Source: Patescibacteria group bacterium | GTDB lineage: Bacteria > Patescibacteriota > Microgenomatia > UBA1400 > UBA12028 | Direction of reading: 5' to 3' | Length of the DNA stretch: 64,000 nt | Assembly: GCA_035479015.1 (NCBI GenBank) | Contig: DATIJC010000020.1 | Coordinates: 4,365-68,364, forward strand | Shown here: piece by piece, positions 136 to 53,270 of the stretch | Position numbering within the stretch: the first letter of the stretch is position 1 | Layout of the letters: each line of letters opens with the position of its first letter | The notes under the pieces: generated by a model | Told to the model about the DNA's origin: nothing | Databases searched by the model: none | What the model saw: the letters and a program-made list of their open reading frames with translations, nothing else | Made by a program: the position numbers and the translations under genes

Positions 136-424
136 CAGAATCTCTCCGAATTGTTTTTGCTAGTATATTGTCAATAACCTCATAGCCAGGCGTTATTACA
201 GATCGAATTCCGCCGTGGTGGGCCGCCCTACTAACTACCTCAATGAGTGTTGCACTCGGTAAGTCAAAATAGTTGTTTCTCTTTGCAAACAGGTACCCTA
301 CATGTAGTAAAACTAATATTGGATCATCCGTGGTCAGACGATCCAGATCAAGCTCTTGCTGTCCTGTTACGACTTCACCATTAATCACCAGTTCAATTTC
401 AAAACTTGTCATACGCCTTGTCAT
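113..424 (-). CDS. hypothetical small protein (103 aa, possibly starting at second Met, codon 5) lying between atpA and atpG
   Basis: Open frame directly downstream of hairpin-doublet element copy 1. It overlaps the atpG start by 23 nt in another frame. No motif recognised. Confidence 0.35.
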
Positions 425-512
425 TCCTGCGTAGGCAGGAATCCAGTCAATAAGTAAAATTCAATAATGTATTATTTGTTGTCTGGATACTTGCCTACGC
501 AAGTATGACATT
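417..512. repeat. two-hairpin TGTCAT...ATGACA element, copy 1 (hairpin attcctgc-GTAG-gcaggaat at 421-444; AT-rich 38-nt spacer; hairpin tacttgc-CTAC-gcaagta at 488-505)
   Basis: Seen directly. The left 26 nt are 25/26 identical to 11274-11299. The overall architecture is shared with 11272-11367 and 61770-61876. Confidence 0.65.
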
Positions 513-513
513 C

Positions 514-7296: not shown

Positions 7297-7300
7297 CGGA

Positions 7301-7331
7301 AAAAAACAGGGGGTTGCCCCCCTGTTTTCAA
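7301..7331. terminator. bidirectional intrinsic terminator (12-bp stem AAAAACAGGGGG/CCCCCTGTTTTT, loop TTGC) between convergent genes
   Basis: Perfect hairpin with an A-run on one side and a T-run on the other. An identical 27-nt core occurs at 8106-8132. Confidence 0.7.
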
Positions 7332-8102: not shown

Positions 8103-8135
8103 AAAAAAAACAGGGGGTTGCCCCCCTGTTTAAGT
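8103..8135 (-). terminator. intrinsic terminator downstream of paralog 2, the same hairpin as 7301-7331 followed by T8 on the minus strand
   Basis: Seen in sequence. Confidence 0.7.
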
Positions 8136-8882: not shown

Positions 8883-8906
8883 TAATAAAACAGGGGGTTG
8901 CCCTCT
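8883..8906. repeat. degenerate third copy of the CAGGGGGTTGCCC terminator hairpin
   Basis: ACAGGGGGTTGCCCTCTGA has one stem mismatch. It is probably a remnant of a third duplication unit. Confidence 0.3.
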
Positions 8907-8957
8907 GACAAAATTTAGATTTGACCCGAAGGGGTAGAATTTGCCATACTACACACA

Positions 8958-11248: not shown

Positions 11249-11271
11249 AGAGAGGGTATTTTATCACATTC

Positions 11272-11367
11272 ATGTCATTCCTGCGAAGGCAGGAATCCAT
11301 GCAACAAAGAAAATACAAAAATGAGTTATTTATTGACTGGATCCCTGTCTACACAGGGATGACAGAC
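11272..11367. repeat. two-hairpin TGTCAT...ATGACA element, copy 2 (attcctgc-GAAG-gcaggaat at 11277-11296; 37-nt spacer; tccctgt-CTAC-acaggga at 11341-11358)
   Basis: Left hairpin is 25/26 identical to copy 1. The spacer is about 70 percent identical. The right hairpin stem differs from copy 1 by fully compensatory changes. The CTA of the loop is the stop codon of the upstream phosphoribosyltransferase gene (read as TAG on the minus strand). Confidence 0.65.
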
Positions 11368-41413: not shown

Positions 41414-41752
41414 TTGAAAGGAAAAAATATGTCGGTTTTTAACATCGAATCCCGTGAGCAATTTATCTCAGAAGTATTCCCTGATGGCGTTCCTGCCCTA
41501 CAATCTAGAGATTACTTAAAAGAGAGTGCAATCGACTGGTCTGTTTCACGTAGCAGGTTGTTGAAGACGGCAATCAGAAATGGCGATGAGGAACAAGCAA
41601 AAACAGTTATTCGTGAGTACGCTGCCATCGTTGGTATAGACAGAGCAATACAAGTATTTCTTGAAATTTGGGGAAACGTGGTCACTGAGAACATGGAAGA
41701 TGAACCAATTGTTGAAGACTTAGATACTGGTTTCCCGCCTGCGCGGGAATGA
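41414..41752 (+). CDS. hypothetical protein (112 aa)
   Basis: ORF only. Overlaps the tsaD 3' end convergently. Confidence 0.35.
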   Translation: MKGKNMSVFNIESREQFISEVFPDGVPALQSRDYLKESAIDWSVSRSRLLKTAIRNGDEEQAKTVIREYAAIVGIDRAIQVFLEIWGNVVTENMEDEPIVEDLDTGFPPARE

Positions 41753-42766
41753 AAGATTCGATTGACGATCTAACGTAGAAAAATCTGTAACAAAGTCGTT
41801 GGCCTGGGCCTGAAAATATGCTGCAACGCCAATCATCGCCGCATTATCTGTATACAGTTTTTGTGAGTAGGGAACTAGCAGGGGAATTTTATGGGTACGA
41901 GCAACCGAACGTAGAGCATGGCGCACTTCCCTATTGGCTCCTACTCCCCCGCCCAAAATAATACTTTTCACCTCTTTATCTTTTAGCGCAAATTCAAGTT
42001 TCTCAATCAGGTGTGTGATCGCAGAAGTTTGGAATCCAAGCGCAATATCTGCTATATCTTGTTGTGTTAGTTTGTCGTATTTTTCAATGATGCGGGAAGC
42101 AGCAGTTTTTAAACCTGAAAAACTCATATTAGCGTCTTTGACTTGTCGCATTGGCACTGGAAAAGGAATTTTTCCAACTATTCCTTTGCGGGCCATCAGC
42201 TCTACTAACCTGCCAGCTGGATATCCTAAGCCCAACATGCGACCGACTTTATCAAAGGCTTCGCCCATCGCATCGTCTTGTGTCTGCCCGACGATTTCAT
42301 ACTCCCCAATTGCTTTGGCATACACAAACTCGGTATGACCTCCCGATACCAATACGGCCAATGCTGGAAATTGATCAGCCCATGGCTGACCCGCCTTGGG
42401 CGGGTTTGCAAGAAACGAAAGCAAATGTCCTTCCATATGGTTAACTGCAATCAACGGCTTGTTGTATTTAGTCGCAAGCTCTTTTGCATATGCGATACCA
42501 ATCTCTAATGCTATCGCGAGTCCAGGACCGACCGTCACGGCGATTGCGTCAAGATCGCTAAGATTTACTTTTGCTTTTTTCAATGCTTGCTCTACAACCG
42601 TCGGCAAATTTTGTTCATGCGACAAGCGGGCTAGTCTTGGCACAACACCACCATAAATCTGTAAATCAGAAACCTCGCTAAAACGTATATTTGAACGAAT
42701 AGCTAAGTTTTCGATTACTGCGGCTGCAGTATCATCAAATGAGGTGTCGACAGATAAAATAATCAT
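41720..42766 (-). CDS. tsaD: tRNA N6-adenosine threonylcarbamoyltransferase
   Basis: HMEGHLL ... LVSGGHTEF. Carries an extra NPPKAGQPWAD insert encoded by the 30-nt repeat. Confidence 0.95.
   Translation of the reverse strand: MIILSVDTSFDDTAAAVIENLAIRSNIRFSEVSDLQIYGGVVPRLARLSHEQNLPTVVEQALKKAKVNLSDLDAIAVTVGPGLAIALEIGIAYAKELATKYNKPLIAVNHMEGHLLSFLANPPKAGQPWADQFPALAVLVSGGHTEFVYAKAIGEYEIVGQTQDDAMGEAFDKVGRMLGLGYPAGRLVELMARKGIVGKIPFPVPMRQVKDANMSFSGLKTAASRIIEKYDKLTQQDIADIALGFQTSAITHLIEKLEFALKDKEVKSIILGGGVGANREVRHALRSVARTHKIPLLVPYSQKLYTDNAAMIGVAAYFQAQANDFVTDFSTLDRQSNLSFPRRRETSI
42377..42407. repeat. 30-nt GC-rich palindromic repeat, copy 1, inside tsaD (encodes KAGQPWAD)
   Basis: 28/30 identical to 42779-42809. 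Contains CCCGCC-N3-GGCGGG. Confidence 0.7.
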
Positions 42767-42774
42767 GTTTGTAG

Positions 42775-43851
42775 TTAGTCAGCCCAAGGCTGACCCGCCA
42801 TGGGCGGGTAATTAATTGTAATTTTACGTGAGAACTCCCCAGTGTCTTCTAGGGAAATCCAAATAATCTTTGCTCCTCTACAGAGTTTTTCCAATTCTAT
42901 GGCAAATCGGTCTGCCCACTCTATGGCCAGCACGCAGTTGTTTTCAATATATTTTTTGATACCAATCAGCTCCAGTTCCTTTGCTTCGCTCATCCTCCAT
43001 GTATCGATATGCACGAACAAACTTGGCCGTGACTCGCTCTCAAATCTATACTCACTTGCCATCGTGTAGGTAGGACTAACAACTGGATCCCCTATGGATA
43101 GACCTGCAGCTAAGCCCTTCACAAAGTGCGTCTTCCCAGCCCCCATCTCACCCGTGAGCGCAAAAACGATTGGGGTATATGTATAAAAGGATCGGTACTG
43201 CGTTGCCAAACTTTGCGCCGCAGCAACCGTCTCCTGTACTGAATCCGTTTCAATAATTTGTTTTTTGGCAAACTGGATTTGACCCATTCGCTGTACTTTT
43301 ATGTCATCCAAAGTTGTATCAATTACTGTAGACGGTTCATTGTGCGGCAATTCTCCTGCGTCCAAAACGAGATCAATGAGATCCTTTTGTGATCGTGAAA
43401 TTGCCGTGAAAATATCGCTAATAGTGTACGGGCGCTTTTGATTGGAGGCATTAGCCCCGGTAGCAGTTATTCCGTGTCCAAATTTAGAAATAATCTCTAA
43501 AATTAGTGGGTACTTAGGGATACGGATCCCCAGCGTACCACCAGTAATTTTGTGTGAAACTACGGTCACCGGACCTGGTAAAAACGTCTGGTAGACATTG
43601 AGTGCAGTATCATTGAGCTCCACATACTTTTGGGCCATCCGGACATCGGATACAGCCACAGAAATTGGTTTATTATTGCGCTTCCCTTTATAGTCCAAGA
43701 GTCTTTGCATCGCGGCTGGATTTTCACAATCCGCCCCTATGCCATAGGTAGTTTCGGTGGGGTACACTACAAGACCGCCAGCTTGTAATACAGCTACGAT
43801 TTTCTTAATCACTTCTTCTTTTGAGATTTTTCCCAGGTCCAGTATTTCCAT
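42775..43851 (-). CDS. tsaC: fused L-threonylcarbamoyladenylate synthase (TsaC/YrdC domain) and TsaE (YjeE P-loop) protein
   Basis: N-terminal half VVYPTETTYGIGAD is a YrdC domain. C-terminal half LTGEMGAGKTHFVKG...SPTYTM...HIDTWR is TsaE. The C-terminus ...MAGQPWAD comes from the repeat. Confidence 0.8.
   Translation of the reverse strand: MEILDLGKISKEEVIKKIVAVLQAGGLVVYPTETTYGIGADCENPAAMQRLLDYKGKRNNKPISVAVSDVRMAQKYVELNDTALNVYQTFLPGPVTVVSHKITGGTLGIRIPKYPLILEIISKFGHGITATGANASNQKRPYTISDIFTAISRSQKDLIDLVLDAGELPHNEPSTVIDTTLDDIKVQRMGQIQFAKKQIIETDSVQETVAAAQSLATQYRSFYTYTPIVFALTGEMGAGKTHFVKGLAAGLSIGDPVVSPTYTMASEYRFESESRPSLFVHIDTWRMSEAKELELIGIKKYIENNCVLAIEWADRFAIELEKLCRGAKIIWISLEDTGEFSRKITINYPPMAGQPWAD
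42779..42809. repeat. 30-nt GC-rich palindromic repeat, copy 2, forming the last 8 codons and stop region of tsaC/tsaE
   Basis: Seen directly. Confidence 0.7.
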
Positions 43852-48828: not shown

Positions 48829-49889
48829 AGAGTGGTAGTATACCAGATCAGACGCATTGTGTGAAGCCGCATGATAAGCCCTAAACCGATACACGTAGCC
48901 AGAAAAGAGCTGCCCCCAGCTGAAAGAAGGGGCAAAGGAATTCCTGTTACGGGAAAAAGACGCATATCCATACCCGCGTGAATAATGGCTTGAAATAGAA
49001 TCGAAGTACCTATCCCAATGATAGCCAGACGTGCAAAGGGATCCAGAGATTGAGTACCTCGCAAAGCCAAAATACCCAAGAATGTATATCCCAGTAGCAC
49101 AATCGCTCCACCTACAAATCCAGTCTCTTCTACCATGGATGCAAAAAAGAAGTCAGTCTGGCGCTCTGGCAAAAACCGTAGTTGCGATTGGATACCATGC
49201 CCCAGACCCCTGCCCTCCAGTTTGCCAGAACCCACAGCGATCATTGCCTGCTGGGCATTGTAACCTGAGGAGCGTATCGCATCATTTGGATGGGCAAACG
49301 CGAGAATGCGCTGTTTTTGATAGGGATACAGCGCAAAATTCCAAATAAGAAGTACCCCCAGTGTTCCCAACACTATCCAAGGAAGTAACAAACGTAACTT
49401 TTCAATGGCAAAAAACAGAATTGATGCCGACACAGCAGTCAAAACCATCGCACTTCCAAAGTCTGGTTGCAAGAATACCGGTATGCAAAAGGCGAGCGTA
49501 AGTAGGAAATAGACAAATACCCGCCGCTGGGTACGCAACGGATACTTGCGGACGAAGTACGCCAAAAGTAGAGCTAAAGTCGGCTTGGCAAATTCAGAAG
49601 GTTGCACGGATATCTGGCCAAGGGTAAGCCAACGGACCGAGCCCTTCGCATTCCTGCCAGCAATCATGGTGAGCATGAGTAGAACGAATATGATTCCAGC
49701 CACACCGGGAGCCAGCCTCTTAAAAAACTGCGGATCCGGTATCTGCAAACCTAAAAAAACTAACCCTGAAAAAAGTGCTGCTACAGCTTGAGCTTTTACT
49801 TCGTTGCTGGCTACGCTCGCAAGCACAGTGACAGAGAATATACCGAATAATATGATGAGGATGAGTGTAAACAATACTCGAAATCTCAT
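48825..49889 (-). CDS. SEDS-family peptidoglycan glycosyltransferase (RodA/FtsW-like)
   Basis: About 10 TM helices. GSAMVL... and a C-terminal SEDS block. Confidence 0.75.
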   Translation of the reverse strand: MRFRVLFTLILIILFGIFSVTVLASVASNEVKAQAVAALFSGLVFLGLQIPDPQFFKRLAPGVAGIIFVLLMLTMIAGRNAKGSVRWLTLGQISVQPSEFAKPTLALLLAYFVRKYPLRTQRRVFVYFLLTLAFCIPVFLQPDFGSAMVLTAVSASILFFAIEKLRLLLPWIVLGTLGVLLIWNFALYPYQKQRILAFAHPNDAIRSSGYNAQQAMIAVGSGKLEGRGLGHGIQSQLRFLPERQTDFFFASMVEETGFVGGAIVLLGYTFLGILALRGTQSLDPFARLAIIGIGTSILFQAIIHAGMDMRLFPVTGIPLPLLSAGGSSFLATCIGLGLIMRLHTMRLIWYTTTL

Positions 49890-52741
49890 ACCTTCTCTAC
49901 TTTGGGAGTGCCTCGAAGGAGCGTTCCCACATGAGCCCGGCGGCGAATCTCTTCCGTATACTCATCCGGCCACTCCGGTAGCCAAGCATTTACATGGTCT
50001 CCCACAGCTATCGATACATCAGCCTTGCGCATATCTTGGATTTGACGGACACACTCGCGCATTTTCCCTTCCGCTATCAATTGATCTGTCAGCGTAGTAT
50101 CTAGATCCACTTCTAGTAAACTTGCAGATTTTTGCAGCCAATCTATTTTTTTGACGTTCACTTCAACAGAAATAAGTTCCTGTAATTTCACATCAATAGC
50201 TGGGAACTCACTGACGACGTGAAGAATGGACAAGGGTTGGCGCACTTTGAGTGACTTGAGTTTACGGATAGACAGAGCCTTTTCCACAATTTGGGCGGTC
50301 AGTGCCATATCTGCTTCTAATTTCTCATCACGTAGTGCCAACAGATCAGAGACCTCTGGCCAGTCAGCCAAGTGCAATGACTCTCCACTCCCAGTGATAC
50401 CTTGATAAATCGTCTCACTAATAAACGGGATAAATGGTGCAAACAATTTGCATAGTAGTACTAGCGCACGCCTATATATCTCGCGGGCATCGCTACTTTC
50501 TTTCAAACGCTCACGCGATAACCGGACATACCAGGTGGAGAGAAGTGTAGTAAATTCCATGAGTGTTCTACTGGCGTTAGTGAGGTCATACCCATCCATA
50601 TAGATAGTCACCTCTTGGGTCAAGTTGGCGAGTTTTGACAGCAGCCAGCGATCCATTACATGTAGAGTTGATAGTTGATAGTTGACCGTTTGGATTTTAG
50701 ATTTTAGATTTTGGATTTTGGAGTCCTGTAAGTACATTGCGTAGAATCCATACATATTCCACAATGTGTTCACTACACGATTTTGGATTTCATGCACTCC
50801 TTTTTCGGAAAAATTCAAATTTTCACCCTTCATGAGAGGGCTACTCATCATGTAGAGGCGCAGTGAGTCTACTCCATACTTATCGATGAGTAAGTTTGGG
50901 TCGGGATAATTGTGCTTGCTCTTACTCATCTTTTGGCCGTCCTCAGCGAGGATTGTCCCGGTGGTCAAACAGTTTTCAAACGCTTGCGAGCCAAATATTC
51001 CCACAGATAAGACGTGCATACAGTAAAACCACGCACGTGTCTGAGCGATGTACTCGGTGATAAATTGCGCAGGATAGGAAGAATCAAATTGCGGTTTATT
51101 TTCAAAGGGGTAATGCATTTGGGCAAACGGCATGCTCCCGGATTCCACCCAACAGTCAAATACTTCAAAAACGCGTTTTCCTTTGATCGTCTTCTGGTCA
51201 TCCACCCAAACTTCTATTTCGTCCAAAAATTCCCGGTGTAGATCTGTCAGTTTTTCCACCTGTTTTGGATCTACCGCCCAGTGTTTCAATTCTTCGATGC
51301 TTCCTACAACCCGGCGCAAATTTCCGCTTTGCCAGATGGGCATCGGTGTTCCCCAGTATCTACTGCGTGAAATGTTCCAATCAGGTGCAGTCTCTAGTCC
51401 CTTGCCGAAGCGTCCGTACTTTAAATGCTCCGGGAACCAATTGATGTATTCGTTAGCTTTTATCATTTCAGGCCGCAACTTGGCAACGTCAATAAACCAC
51501 GCGGGTAGGGCATTAAAGTACAGTGGTGTTCCACAGCGGTAACAAAATGGATATGAGTGCGTGAAACGACTCGTGTGAAAAACAAGATCTCGTTGAGTTA
51601 AGTCCTCTACTACCCACTTCTCTGCTTTTTTATAGAAGACTCCCGCAAGTGGTTCCACAAATTCTAAAAATTTCCCCTGATCATCCAAGGTTGGTACACA
51701 AGGTAATTTTCTCTCCTGTGCAAGTTTATAGTCATCCTCACCAAAAATTGCAGCAGTATGAACGATACCGGATCCTTCCTCTAAGCTCACAAAGTCGGCA
51801 GTCATGACATAGTGTGCTTTTTTCCCATCAAGAGGCATGTAGGTGTATAGCGGTTCGTACTCCAATCCTTCCAACTCTTTCCCTTTCGCAGTTTTAAGTA
51901 CGGTTGGCTCCTTGATGCCAAGCAAGTGTGCCATCGCGCTTAAACGGTCTTTAGCCACCCAAAAACTCATGTCCTGGAATTCGAACAAAACATATTTTGC
52001 TTCAGGAAGTACTGCCAGAGCTACATTACCAGGAAGTGTCCAAGGAGTAGTTGTCCAAGCTACAAAATAGGTATTTTTTTCACCAACTACTTTAAACTTT
52101 ACAAAAAGTGAATAATCTTCAGTATCTTGATAGCTATTGTCCATAGCTATCTCAAAATTTGAGAGCGGTGTGGAGCAGCGCGGACAGTATAAAATTACTT
52201 TTCTACCTTGATATATCAAACCTTTTTTGTAGAGCTCGCTAAAACCCCACCAGACACTTTCCATGAAATTCTTATCCATGGTTTTATACGCTCTATCAAA
52301 ATCAACCCAACGTCCCAGGCGGCGGATAGTTTTCTTCCATTCTTTGTCATAAACCATGATAGATGCAGCACAGGCTTGGTTAAATTTATCGATTCCAAGT
52401 TCTTCGATTCCTTTTTTTCCACCTTTCAGACCCAGCTGCTTCTCAATCGCATTTTCGATCGGCACGCCGTGACAGTCCCATCCCCAAACACGTTCGACGT
52501 GCTTACCTCGCATCGTCTGGTAGCGTGGAATGACGTCTTTACTCGTAGAGCTGAGAAGATGGCCGTAATGAGGTAAACCGTTGGCAAAGGGTGGCCCGTC
52601 GTAAAAAACGTAGGTATCGTTTTTAGGACGGTTGTCGACCGATTTTTTAAATGCGTCCGTATCATCCCAGAACTGCAACACTTCTTCTTCAAGTTTGGCA
52701 AAGTTCGGACGACCTTGCGAAAATTTAGATAATTTTTTCAT
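49886..52741 (-). CDS. ileS: isoleucyl-tRNA synthetase (type 2-like)
   Basis: PPFANGLPHYGHLL (HIGH region), GWDCHGVPIE, KMSKSKHN. Confidence 0.95.
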   Translation of the reverse strand: MKKLSKFSQGRPNFAKLEEEVLQFWDDTDAFKKSVDNRPKNDTYVFYDGPPFANGLPHYGHLLSSTSKDVIPRYQTMRGKHVERVWGWDCHGVPIENAIEKQLGLKGGKKGIEELGIDKFNQACAASIMVYDKEWKKTIRRLGRWVDFDRAYKTMDKNFMESVWWGFSELYKKGLIYQGRKVILYCPRCSTPLSNFEIAMDNSYQDTEDYSLFVKFKVVGEKNTYFVAWTTTPWTLPGNVALAVLPEAKYVLFEFQDMSFWVAKDRLSAMAHLLGIKEPTVLKTAKGKELEGLEYEPLYTYMPLDGKKAHYVMTADFVSLEEGSGIVHTAAIFGEDDYKLAQERKLPCVPTLDDQGKFLEFVEPLAGVFYKKAEKWVVEDLTQRDLVFHTSRFTHSYPFCYRCGTPLYFNALPAWFIDVAKLRPEMIKANEYINWFPEHLKYGRFGKGLETAPDWNISRSRYWGTPMPIWQSGNLRRVVGSIEELKHWAVDPKQVEKLTDLHREFLDEIEVWVDDQKTIKGKRVFEVFDCWVESGSMPFAQMHYPFENKPQFDSSYPAQFITEYIAQTRAWFYCMHVLSVGIFGSQAFENCLTTGTILAEDGQKMSKSKHNYPDPNLLIDKYGVDSLRLYMMSSPLMKGENLNFSEKGVHEIQNRVVNTLWNMYGFYAMYLQDSKIQNLKSKIQTVNYQLSTLHVMDRWLLSKLANLTQEVTIYMDGYDLTNASRTLMEFTTLLSTWYVRLSRERLKESSDAREIYRRALVLLCKLFAPFIPFISETIYQGITGSGESLHLADWPEVSDLLALRDEKLEADMALTAQIVEKALSIRKLKSLKVRQPLSILHVVSEFPAIDVKLQELISVEVNVKKIDWLQKSASLLEVDLDTTLTDQLIAEGKMRECVRQIQDMRKADVSIAVGDHVNAWLPEWPDEYTEEIRRRAHVGTLLRGTPKVEKV
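50665..50721. repeat. two adjacent heptamer arrays (AGTTGAT)x3 and (GATTTTR)x4 inside the ileS coding sequence; encode SKIQNLKSKIQTVNYQLSTL
   Basis: Seen directly. Confidence 0.7.
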
Positions 52742-52744
52742 AAT

Positions 52745-52769
52745 TTGTCCCCGCGTAGGCGGGGATCCA
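52745..52769. repeat. left-type hairpin (TTGTC-ccccgc-GTAG-gcgggg-ATCCA) between GIY-YIG stop and ileS start
   Basis: Flanks TTGTC...ATCCA and loop GTAG match the left hairpins of the doublet elements. Confidence 0.55.
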
Positions 52770-52780
52770 CGTATTGATAG

Positions 52781-53071
52781 TTAGAATAAACTTAAATCTA
52801 TCCACTTAGGATTCATTTCCCAGATTCTTCTCAATTTCCATGCTCTATTCCATTTTTTCATTTGTTTTTCTTTAATCCTTGCTTCTCTTAAACTCCCGGT
52901 TTGTTCAAACCATACTAAAATATGAGTTTCATACTTTTTAGTAAAATTAGAGTTGTTATGCTTATGCTGATATATTCTTCTGTTCAAATCCTTTGTACTA
53001 CCAATATAGAGCGTTCCACATTTTTTATTTGCGAGCATGTAAACATATCCATATTCTTTTTCATCAACCAT
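52781..53071 (-). CDS. small GIY-YIG nuclease (UPF0213-like, 97 aa, start at MVDEKEYGYVYML)
   Basis: GYVYMLANKKCGTLYIGSTKDLNRRIYQH is a canonical GIY-YIG motif. The upstream 14 codons of the track ORF run through a hairpin and a terminator, so Met15 is preferred. Confidence 0.75.
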   Translation of the reverse strand: MVDEKEYGYVYMLANKKCGTLYIGSTKDLNRRIYQHKHNNSNFTKKYETHILVWFEQTGSLREARIKEKQMKKWNRAWKLRRIWEMNPKWIDLSLF

Positions 53072-53072
53072 A

Positions 53073-53104
53073 CTGGACCCCCGCCTTCGCGGGGGTGGAC
53101 ATAA
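53073..53104. repeat. right-type hairpin (CTGGA-cccccgc-CTTC-gcggggg-TGGACAT) 2 nt upstream of the GIY-YIG start
   Basis: Flanks CTGGA...TGGACA and the CTWC loop match the right hairpins of the doublet elements. Confidence 0.55.
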
Positions 53105-53150
53105 AAAAACCACGCTACATGTCCATTGTAAAGGACGCTGGCGCGTGGTA
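53101..53150 (-). terminator. imperfect long hairpin (CCACGC...GCGTGG) followed by T7 on the minus strand
   Basis: Seen in sequence. Ends the 53271-54018 gene pair. Confidence 0.45.
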
Positions 53151-53270
53151 CCACCTTTAATACTTCTCGTACTGCTGTGTCGGGCTTACCCGGAGGGATT
53201 TACTTAGTTTCTCCCCTCATGCTCATCTAGTGATAGCTAGACTCAAACGCAACTAGAACTAATTATACAC

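Follow-up and report, generated by a model that had tools for sequence, protein, structure and literature searches.

A single-domain GIY-YIG nuclease gene between inverted hairpins in the ileS leader of a Patescibacteria genome is very probably a divergent member of the Ssn/SRM system

Why should a gene for a very small nuclease lie between two matching hairpins directly in front of the ileS start codon? The question is raised by a 64,000-nucleotide stretch of a Patescibacteria group bacterium (GenBank assembly GCA_035479015.1, contig DATIJC010000020.1, positions 4,365 to 68,364 of the forward strand), referred to below as the window, in which an ssn-like gene (52781..53071, minus strand) has one hairpin on each side and related hairpins recur elsewhere, in part as inverted doublets. 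An earlier note had pointed out this small GIY-YIG gene and its hairpins, all stated features of which are found in the sequence, and had suggested that a GIY-YIG-driven REP-like system might not yet be described. That suggestion fails: the Ssn family and its NTS/SRM repeats were published in March 2025, with the same comparisons drawn (Chenal et al. 2025, Nat Commun 16:2388; PMC11893778), and our literature searches found no later work on Ssn/SRM. Judging from its size, single domain, conserved residues and flanking hairpins, the cassette in the window is very probably a member of the Ssn/SRM system with divergent hairpins.

The published NTS/SRM repeat is a hairpin defined as CGTCATTCCCGCGMAVGCGGGAATCYRG, and ssnA, which encodes a 94-aa single-domain GIY-YIG protein (CDD cd10448), is the sole gene family associated with NTS across bacteria (PMC11893778). 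SRMs occur near 71% of ssnA homologs and on both sides of 42%, and the family is found mainly in Pseudomonadati yet is widely distributed (PMC11893778). In purified form, SsnA binds the hairpin on one strand only and exclusively in single-stranded DNA (ssDNA), which it cuts a few nucleotides to the 5' side; mutants Y6A, Y17A and E64A have no activity, three further species have homologs that act alike with partly distinct specificities, and recognition depends on the sequence of the hairpin as well as its structure (PMC11893778). In N. meningitidis, SsnA (NMV_0044/NMB0047) reduces transformation by NTS-containing DNA, and an ssnA knockout raises transformation about 5-fold, only with NTS-containing DNA (PMC11893778). 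The authors discuss the resemblance of NTS-ssnA-NTS to an insertion sequence, draw parallels with IS200/IS605 and REP/BIME/RAYT, and propose domestication; a GIY-YIG counterpart of REPIN/RAYT is a hypothesis only in that paper (PMC11893778).

The ssn-like open reading frame (ORF), read from 53071 to 52781, encodes 96 aa plus a stop codon, a single-domain GIY-YIG protein within the ~94 aa (<150 aa) size criterion for the family. Pfam GIY-YIG (PF01541) matches residues 7-80 at E=1.1e-14 and no second domain is present; a family profile (A1), which includes the window protein itself, matches it at E=8.5e-41, the single match in the window. Residues Y11, Y22, R32, H36 and E68 are invariant A1 columns common to 44 homologs, as is a family-specific C-terminal motif, MKKWNRAWK..LIE..NP.W.DL. 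Y11, Y22 and E68 number as Y6, Y17 and E64 in the 94-aa family consensus, so that equivalents of the SsnA catalytic residues are kept, by consensus numbering rather than by direct alignment to the N. meningitidis protein.

Relatives are widespread, with at least 546 loci encoding them in a scan of one genome per species (185,579 species genomes). The window protein is 100% identical to a protein of a Patescibacteria metagenome-assembled genome; among the best 80 of these at least 546 loci, further relatives are at most 56-59% identical, and homologs from very distant phyla are 50-59% identical. These 80 loci come from Alpha-, Beta- and Gammaproteobacteria, Bacteroidota, Ignavibacteria, Planctomycetota, Chloroflexota, a Kerfeldbacteria genome, a Rickettsiales genome and others; Neisseria is absent among the homolog matches and loci listed. 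NCBIfam holds no specific model for the protein, giving weak sub-threshold matches, and PHROGs and PADLOC hold no specific family. In a PDB search the sole solved relatives of the family are UPF0213 proteins, the closest structures being the small single-domain GIY-YIG proteins BH0048 of B. halodurans (PDB 1ZG2) and EF2693 of E. faecalis (PDB 1YWL), which the family profile matches at E=1e-9 and 5e-8; however, they score 36-41 bits, compared with at least 65 bits for the family members found, and do not have the KKWNRAWK...NP.W.DL motif.

Could the protein instead be a phage-type free-standing GIY-YIG homing endonuclease that targets the hairpin region? Homing-endonuclease families of PHROGs and PADLOC do match it weakly (E = 2.5e-6 to 6e-4), but the matches span just the ~40-residue N-terminal GIY-YIG motif. 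Whereas I-TevI type homing endonucleases have a separate DNA-binding domain and a phage or intron context, the window protein is a single domain of 96 aa with no DNA-binding domain, and there is no phage context in the window. The distribution of relatives also argues against such an origin, with 28 related loci in 2.9 million viral contigs searched compared to at least 546 in the 185,579 species genomes, and we consider it very unlikely.

The hairpins provide the second line of evidence. A scan for perfect hairpins identified seven members of one family in the window, with cores at 423-442, 487-506, 11277-11296, 11341-11360, 41732-41749, 52748-52765 and 53077-53096, and with the common form GTC-(A)YNCCYGY-GNAG-RCRGGNR(T)-CCAG. 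What is conserved is the loop together with two unlike flanks (GTC and CCAG, on opposite sides), whereas the stems vary; the flank asymmetry gives each hairpin a direction. We built a covariance model (R1) from 78 homolog-flanking hairpins of other phyla, none of them from the window; their consensus, CGTCATTCCCGCGAAGGCGGGAATCCAG, is identical to the published NTS. When the window is searched with R1, exactly these seven window hairpins are recovered, on the strands expected, at E = 4e-11 to 7e-4, the next match being at E=0.31. All seven fold as ssDNA, with energies between -7.7 and -10.7 kcal/mol and z-scores between -3.7 and -6.0 relative to shuffles.

Both sides of the ssn gene are matched by R1 in the orientation of the family. 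The hairpin 5' of ssn (53070..53104, minus strand; 35.2 bits, E=4.5e-8; -10.7 kcal/mol) reads ATGTCC-ACCCCCGC-GAAG-GCGGGGGT-CCAGT, with its GTC head outward and a 1-nt insertion after GTC. On the plus strand it appears as CTGGA-CCCCCGC-CTTC-GCGGGGG-TGGACA at 53073-53100, 1 nt from the ssn start codon and not 2 nt as had been described before; other differences from the earlier coordinates are trivial offsets. The hairpin 3' of ssn (52747..52769, plus strand; 21.2 bits, E=7e-4; -9.1 kcal/mol), TTGTC-CCCGC-GTAG-GCGGGG-ATCCA at 52745-52769, ends 6 nt before the ileS ATG (52741), and its head is also outward. It is present as the earlier note had it, but as a degenerate copy with a shortened 5' arm: it is the weakest R1 match and covers model positions 8-30 only, and with 2 nt of the 5' arm missing, the GTC head is absorbed into the stem. 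The exact sequence CCCCGC-N4-GCGGGG is found twice in the window compared to 0.01 expected.

Four of the remaining hairpins form two doublets with outward heads. Doublet 1 (416..513), lying in the gap from the atpA stop codon to the beginning of a small ORF, consists of 416-449 (plus strand) and 480-513 (minus strand), with R1 matches at E=4.3e-11 and 3.4e-6; doublet 2 (11270..11367), between a phosphoribosyltransferase gene and rplS, consists of 11270-11303 (plus strand) and 11334-11367 (minus strand), at E=2.5e-10 and 4.9e-9. They are real inverted pairs (419-510 and 11273-11365), and the 37-nt separation given previously is close, with ~36-37 nt between flank motifs. Each is a long imperfect palindrome with 39-nt arms, which are 82% complementary in doublet 1, and the two doublets share 78% identity over 102 nt, spacer included. 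R1 places the GTC heads outward and the CCAG tails inward both in the doublets and around ssn, as the earlier note had claimed. The last hairpin is a solo copy, TTCCCGC-GCAG-GCGGGAA (41724..41757, minus strand; 37.9 bits, E=7e-9), which overlaps the 3' end of a tsaD-like gene. We note that the phosphoribosyltransferase ORF stops at the TAG inside a loop of doublet 2 (11341-11360; GTAG on the ORF strand) and that the tsaD-like ORF ends within the solo hairpin (41724-41757); both genes appear to owe their present 3' ends to SRM insertions in place of the native ones.

The association of gene and hairpins extends well beyond the window. Of the 80 best homolog loci, 60 have an R1-detected forward hairpin upstream of the gene and a reverse one downstream, each no more than 150 nt away, a count that is partly circular because R1 was trained on hairpins of the same 80 loci; at least one hairpin is present in 77/80 loci, and 198/279 R1 hits are less than 250 nt from the gene. 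Two checks are independent of R1 training. First, a strict rule, requiring a perfect or near-perfect hairpin with GTC/GAC correctly placed, finds a forward-upstream and reverse-downstream pair in 38/80 loci, but in only 2/276 control positions shifted by 1.5-2.2 kb. Second, the hairpin-gene-hairpin layout is seen in at least 13 of 28 independent viral or prophage-contig loci. By eye, most of the 80 loci have GTCATTCCCGC-GAAG-GCGGGAATCCAG upstream and its reverse complement downstream. Stem covariation is also evident (54 cells changed on both sides of a pair versus 5.6 in shuffles), a figure inflated by selection of the hairpin set for pairing. These counts, together with the published biochemistry (PMC11893778), bear out the proposal that the nuclease gene and the hairpins are partners and not chance neighbours.

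The same observations address whether the hairpins are simply punctuation, that is, ordinary terminators or mRNA-structure elements with the nuclease gene merely sitting between two of them, as the earlier note had allowed. All seven do lie in short intergenic spaces or at gene 3' ends, and two of them put a G-run 5-6 nt before a start codon. However, all seven lack a T-run after them, the sole terminator-like hairpin at the locus being the separate T-box one described below, and the loop and GTC/CCAG flanks are conserved while the stems covary. Moreover, homologs from many phyla have this oriented hairpin pair around them, which effectively refutes the punctuation explanation and leaves it with almost no probability.

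Relationships with other known systems are partial. With the published Ssn/SRM system, the window shares a ~94-96 aa single-domain GIY-YIG protein with equivalent conserved Y, Y and E positions, a gene between inverted directional hairpins whose family consensus equals NTS, and extra hairpin copies scattered in intergenic DNA, often as inverted pairs; it differs in its Patescibacteria (Woesebacteria-like) host, in local hairpins that escape the published search pattern, and in the location of the cassette within a probably T-box-controlled aminoacyl-tRNA synthetase leader, and the activity of its protein is a predicted one. REP/REPIN-RAYT systems likewise have a single-copy gene between two inverted short palindromic repeats that are also scattered intergenically, inverted doublets able to fold as one long hairpin, and hairpins recognised in ssDNA, but the window enzyme is a hydrolytic GIY-YIG and not an HUH/Y1 (TnpA_REP) transposase, and the window does not have the conserved 5' GTAG cleavage tetranucleotide, GTAG being a loop variant beside GAAG and GCAG. 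IS200/IS605 elements and their miniature derivatives also have subterminal hairpins recognised as ssDNA with cleavage a short distance away; however, there a single strand bears both the left- and the right-end hairpin, and the cut is made by a Y1 transposase through a covalent intermediate, whereas the window hairpins are on opposite strands, with one cleavable site per strand, and the enzyme is incapable of strand transfer. Of the parallel with these systems drawn earlier, the gene flanked by inverted repeats and the doublets stand, while the HUH/Y1 transposase is missing, and membership of either REP/RAYT or IS200/IS605 is ruled out by the type of enzyme and by hairpins on opposite strands.

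The Neisseria dRS3 repeats have the core ATTCCC-N8-GGGAAT, which is the stem of NTS/SRM, and inverted dRS3 copies delimit the short units known as NIMEs, which in this resemble the window doublets. In the window, however, the TTCCCGC stem is present only at the solo copy (41732-41749); in the doublets the stems are CCTGC, CTTGC and CCTGT, and the spacer is AT-rich and ~37 nt long. Elsewhere, tandem arrays of many SRMs or doublets lie beside ssn at loci L021, L028, L033, L037, L038 and L072; the spacing is regular (~123 nt in L021 and ~156 nt in L037), and these arrays resemble Neisseria NIME/BIME-like clusters.

How might such a cassette behave? By homology with N. meningitidis SsnA, the window Ssn would recognise the directional SRM only in ssDNA and only on the GTC...CCAG strand, which it would hydrolyse a few nucleotides to the 5' side of the GTC head; we infer by analogy that it is active on the window hairpins. 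Since the heads are outward in the cassette and the doublets, cuts are predicted just outside each unit, one per strand and at the 5' boundary of that strand, and a single exposed strand, such as the lagging-strand template or incoming transforming DNA, would be nicked once, immediately beyond the unit. The nucleases of the GIY-YIG superfamily are hydrolytic; they form no covalent intermediate and cannot rejoin DNA or carry out strand transfer. Any Ssn-driven spread of units must therefore use host repair, recombination or template switching, and with a hydrolytic enzyme and inverted hairpins a REP/RAYT or IS605-like cut-and-paste process cannot simply be assumed. We infer that Ssn nicks may drive unit spread via host repair or recombination and not by transposase chemistry, a process that would be closer to nick-induced homing than to transposition.

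Comparative data indicate where the units end. In metagenome-assembled genomes with two copies (L009/L039 and L015/L047), the paralogous cassettes are 86-88% identical from the G of the left GTC to 1-5 nt past the right GAC, with no similarity beyond those ends, although binning errors could put two organisms in one bin. Because similarity is bounded at the hairpin heads, the heads are the ends of the duplicated unit. Relatives without the units are also available. In L086 (IleS 91% identical) and in L087 and L088 (70%), the order ftsA-ftsZ-(small ORFs)-T-box-ileS-ftsW-rplU is kept, but ssn and SRMs are absent at the ileS locus; in L099 (AtpA 79%), the genes at the doublet 1 junction are 1 nt apart with no SRM. 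No SRMs are found in 35.5 kb from four relatives, as compared to seven in the 64-kb window. We read the SRM-ssn-SRM cassette and the SRM doublets as discrete units that probably came to their present sites secondarily.

Several points weigh against the assignment of the cassette to Ssn/SRM and against this history, in addition to the circularity noted above. The published pattern, HGTCWYN(0-2)YYVSBRHN(0-5)WNVSBRGN(0-2)RNCYNB, applied with the criterion of a match within 500 bp on both sides of the gene, has 0 matches in the window (shuffle mean 0.26); it fails at the W after GTC (here C) and at a stem position V (here T), the gene-flanking copies reading GTCC or GTC-CCCGC and not GTCAT, and the doublets carrying CCTGC-type stems. 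The gene-flanking stems (CCCCCGC) also differ from those of the doublets (TTCCTGC, TACTTGC, TCCCTGT) and, with recognition being sequence-dependent, cutting of the doublets by the window Ssn is not certain. The 3' SRM is degenerate. Finally, the IleS relatives are 9-30% divergent, the L086 junction is not clean (19 nt and ~6 codons differ), and absence of the units may reflect loss in the relatives instead of gain in the window lineage.

We also observed a weak Rfam match to FtrB (Francisella sRNA B, RF02748) at 52719-52810 on the plus strand. This is explained by the FtrB consensus itself, which contains an SRM/NTS-like hairpin, GuCauuCcCGCGuAGGCGgGaauC, so the annotated FtrB small RNA family may include an Ssn-type repeat.

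An extension of the Ssn/SRM reading, which does not exclude it, is that the system is an active selfish element, in which SRM-ssn-SRM is autonomous and the doublets are non-autonomous (REPIN/MITE-like), both currently mobilised by Ssn nicks at their heads and copied in through host repair. The boundaries of the paralogous pairs, exactly at the heads and within the same genome bin, favour this, as do the missing cassette and doublet 1 at the corresponding sites of relatives and the 50-59% identity of homologs from very distant phyla. The similarity of the two window doublets, spacer included, suggests that they spread as units, and head-out doublets with ~0-50 nt spacers are common in other genomes, where 47 of the 50 adjacent forward-reverse SRM pairs that do not span the ssn-like gene are less than 110 nt apart. 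Other observations count against it. Hydrolytic chemistry provides no strand transfer, each strand presents just one hairpin oriented for cleavage, and we saw no target-site duplication or shared target sequence at the ends of the window units. There is one ssn copy in the 64-kb window, and the identical proteins P0001 and P0020 are each in a single genomic context, so they give no evidence of recent transposition; similarly, with a degenerate 3' SRM and the closest homolog at 56-59% identity, there is no sign of recent movement. The difference between gene-flanking and doublet stems is a further difficulty given sequence-dependent recognition, and transposition is demonstrated nowhere (PMC11893778). 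On balance, a selfish element is a possible but tentative interpretation. We also considered whether the doublets are simple deletion derivatives of the cassette, but by eye there is no obvious similarity between the doublet spacers and the subterminal parts of the cassette, and this idea is unsupported.

The position of the cassette within the ileS locus is the next consideration. Downstream of it is ileS (49886..52741, minus strand), a 951-aa ORF with tRNA-synt_1 domains that is probably co-transcribed with ssn. The 170 nt upstream of the cassette (minus strand) are a probable ileS T-box leader (53101..53256), in which the leader at 53256-53128 is followed by a terminator-like CCACGC...GCGTGG stem and a T7 run ending at 53101. 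In a 901-nt search Rfam RF00230 matches with 26.4 bits (E=1e-3), short of its gathering score of 93, and at gathering thresholds Rfam identifies only tRNAs in the window. Nonetheless, the GGUGGUACCACGC...GCGUCC antiterminator motif is present, the T-box sequence itself is the pairing partner of the terminator 3' arm, ahead of the leader there is a conserved TGTATAAT, and homologous T-box leaders are located before ileS in L086 and L088, the T-box element being conserved also in L097.

The cassette starts at the end of the T-run and finishes 6 nt before the ileS ATG, taking the place of the GGAG that forms the Shine-Dalgarno region in L088. Ahead of the ssn and ileS ATGs, purine runs resembling a Shine-Dalgarno sequence occur nowhere but in the hairpin 3' arms, as their G-runs; the 3' SRM G-run would replace the ileS Shine-Dalgarno sequence, and from the sequence it is plausible that the hairpin 3' arms affect ribosome binding at both starts. 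Between the T-box and ileS, the minus strand showed no sigma-70-like promoter. With the cassette placed after the T-box terminator and ahead of the ileS start, ssn is probably transcribed only on T-box read-through, which would place its expression under T-box control. In the predicted fold of the read-through RNA (52725-53165, minus strand), the inverted hairpins pair with each other over a long range, in a helix with the complete ssn ORF inside it (z = -5.3 relative to shuffles); if formed, this helix could compete with the local hairpins and affect ssn and ileS translation.

A similar layout is present in L097/L098, of a related candidate-phyla-radiation lineage whose Ssn is 56% identical, where a T-box (33 bits, E=2e-5), a terminator with T8, a degenerate hairpin, ssn, a second degenerate hairpin and serS follow one another (4829-5340 in L097). 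A regular-expression scan of all fetched loci found the T-box motif beside ssn only in the window lineage and in L097/L098, and the contexts of P0004 and P0006 have neither a T-box nor a synthetase. The T-box placement may reflect target preference, selection, or recombination between paralogous leaders. In the closest relative, L086 (1180-1235), the same T-box lacks the terminator 3' arm and T-run, and an AGGA Shine-Dalgarno can pair with TCCT of the antiterminator 3' strand, so that it looks like a translational, sequestrator-type T-box. An interpretation of L086 as the ancestral empty site, with a switch from a translational to a transcriptional T-box, has been withdrawn; L088 and L097 carry the terminator type of the window, which makes L086 the outlier.

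The location within a housekeeping operon, with no promoter of its own detected, and the single ssn copy in the window are compatible with an alternative to selfish spread, namely that Ssn is domesticated and cuts incoming or exposed ssDNA at SRMs, modulating transformation or recombination near SRM-marked genes, with the repeats kept for this role. Candidate-phyla-radiation bacteria commonly encode DNA-uptake machinery, which would suit such a function. However, the seven SRMs are at unrelated housekeeping junctions (atpA, rplS, tsaD and ileS) with no obvious logic, and because no SRMs are found in the 35.5 kb of relatives, the function is not conserved in the lineage. A role of this type is established for N. 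meningitidis SsnA, from the ~5-fold rise in transformation with NTS DNA in the knockout, but the functional evidence is confined to Neisseria (PMC11893778). We regard the domesticated and selfish interpretations as about equally tenable, both short of probable, and as mutually compatible.

A bolder proposal combines these elements: the cassette is, or was recently, mobile by a hydrolytic ssDNA nickase, a GIY-YIG counterpart of REPIN/RAYT, settling preferentially after T-box terminators (that of ileS here and of serS in L097), so that the nuclease comes under uncharged-tRNA control and the 3' hairpin becomes the ribosome-binding site of the synthetase. We consider this unlikely as a whole.

Two other sets of repeats in the window are distinct from the SRMs. 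A different hairpin, AAAACAGGGGG-TTGC-CCCCCTGTTTT, occurs at 7300-7327, 8104-8131 and 8884-8911, with ~800-nt spacing, each time behind a coding segment similar to the others (repeat families D2 and D6); the three resemble terminators of tandem paralogous genes and are unrelated to SRMs. Near the tsaD-like gene there are also 45-nt direct repeats (42361-42405 and 42765-42809, 404 nt apart), which are not SRMs and each of which contains two adjacent small hairpins, TCAGCC..GGCTGA and ACCCGCC..GGCGGGT.

Returning to the Ssn/SRM assignment, the finding opens no new category because the core idea is already published. What is new is a Patescibacteria member of the system, paralogous cassettes in the same metagenome-assembled genomes that are alike only between the two hairpin heads, relatives without the cassette and without one doublet at the corresponding sites, and a cassette located between a T-box terminator and the ileS start codon, with a related lineage alike at serS. 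As the window hairpin variants are missed by the published pattern, pattern-based surveys undercount these repeats. The exact boundaries of the paralogs and the empty sites in relatives provide comparative evidence for discrete insertable units, which bears on how the repeats spread, and the presence of a nuclease cassette within synthetase leaders of probable T-box type offers a testable case of a repeat element wired into amino-acid-starvation control.

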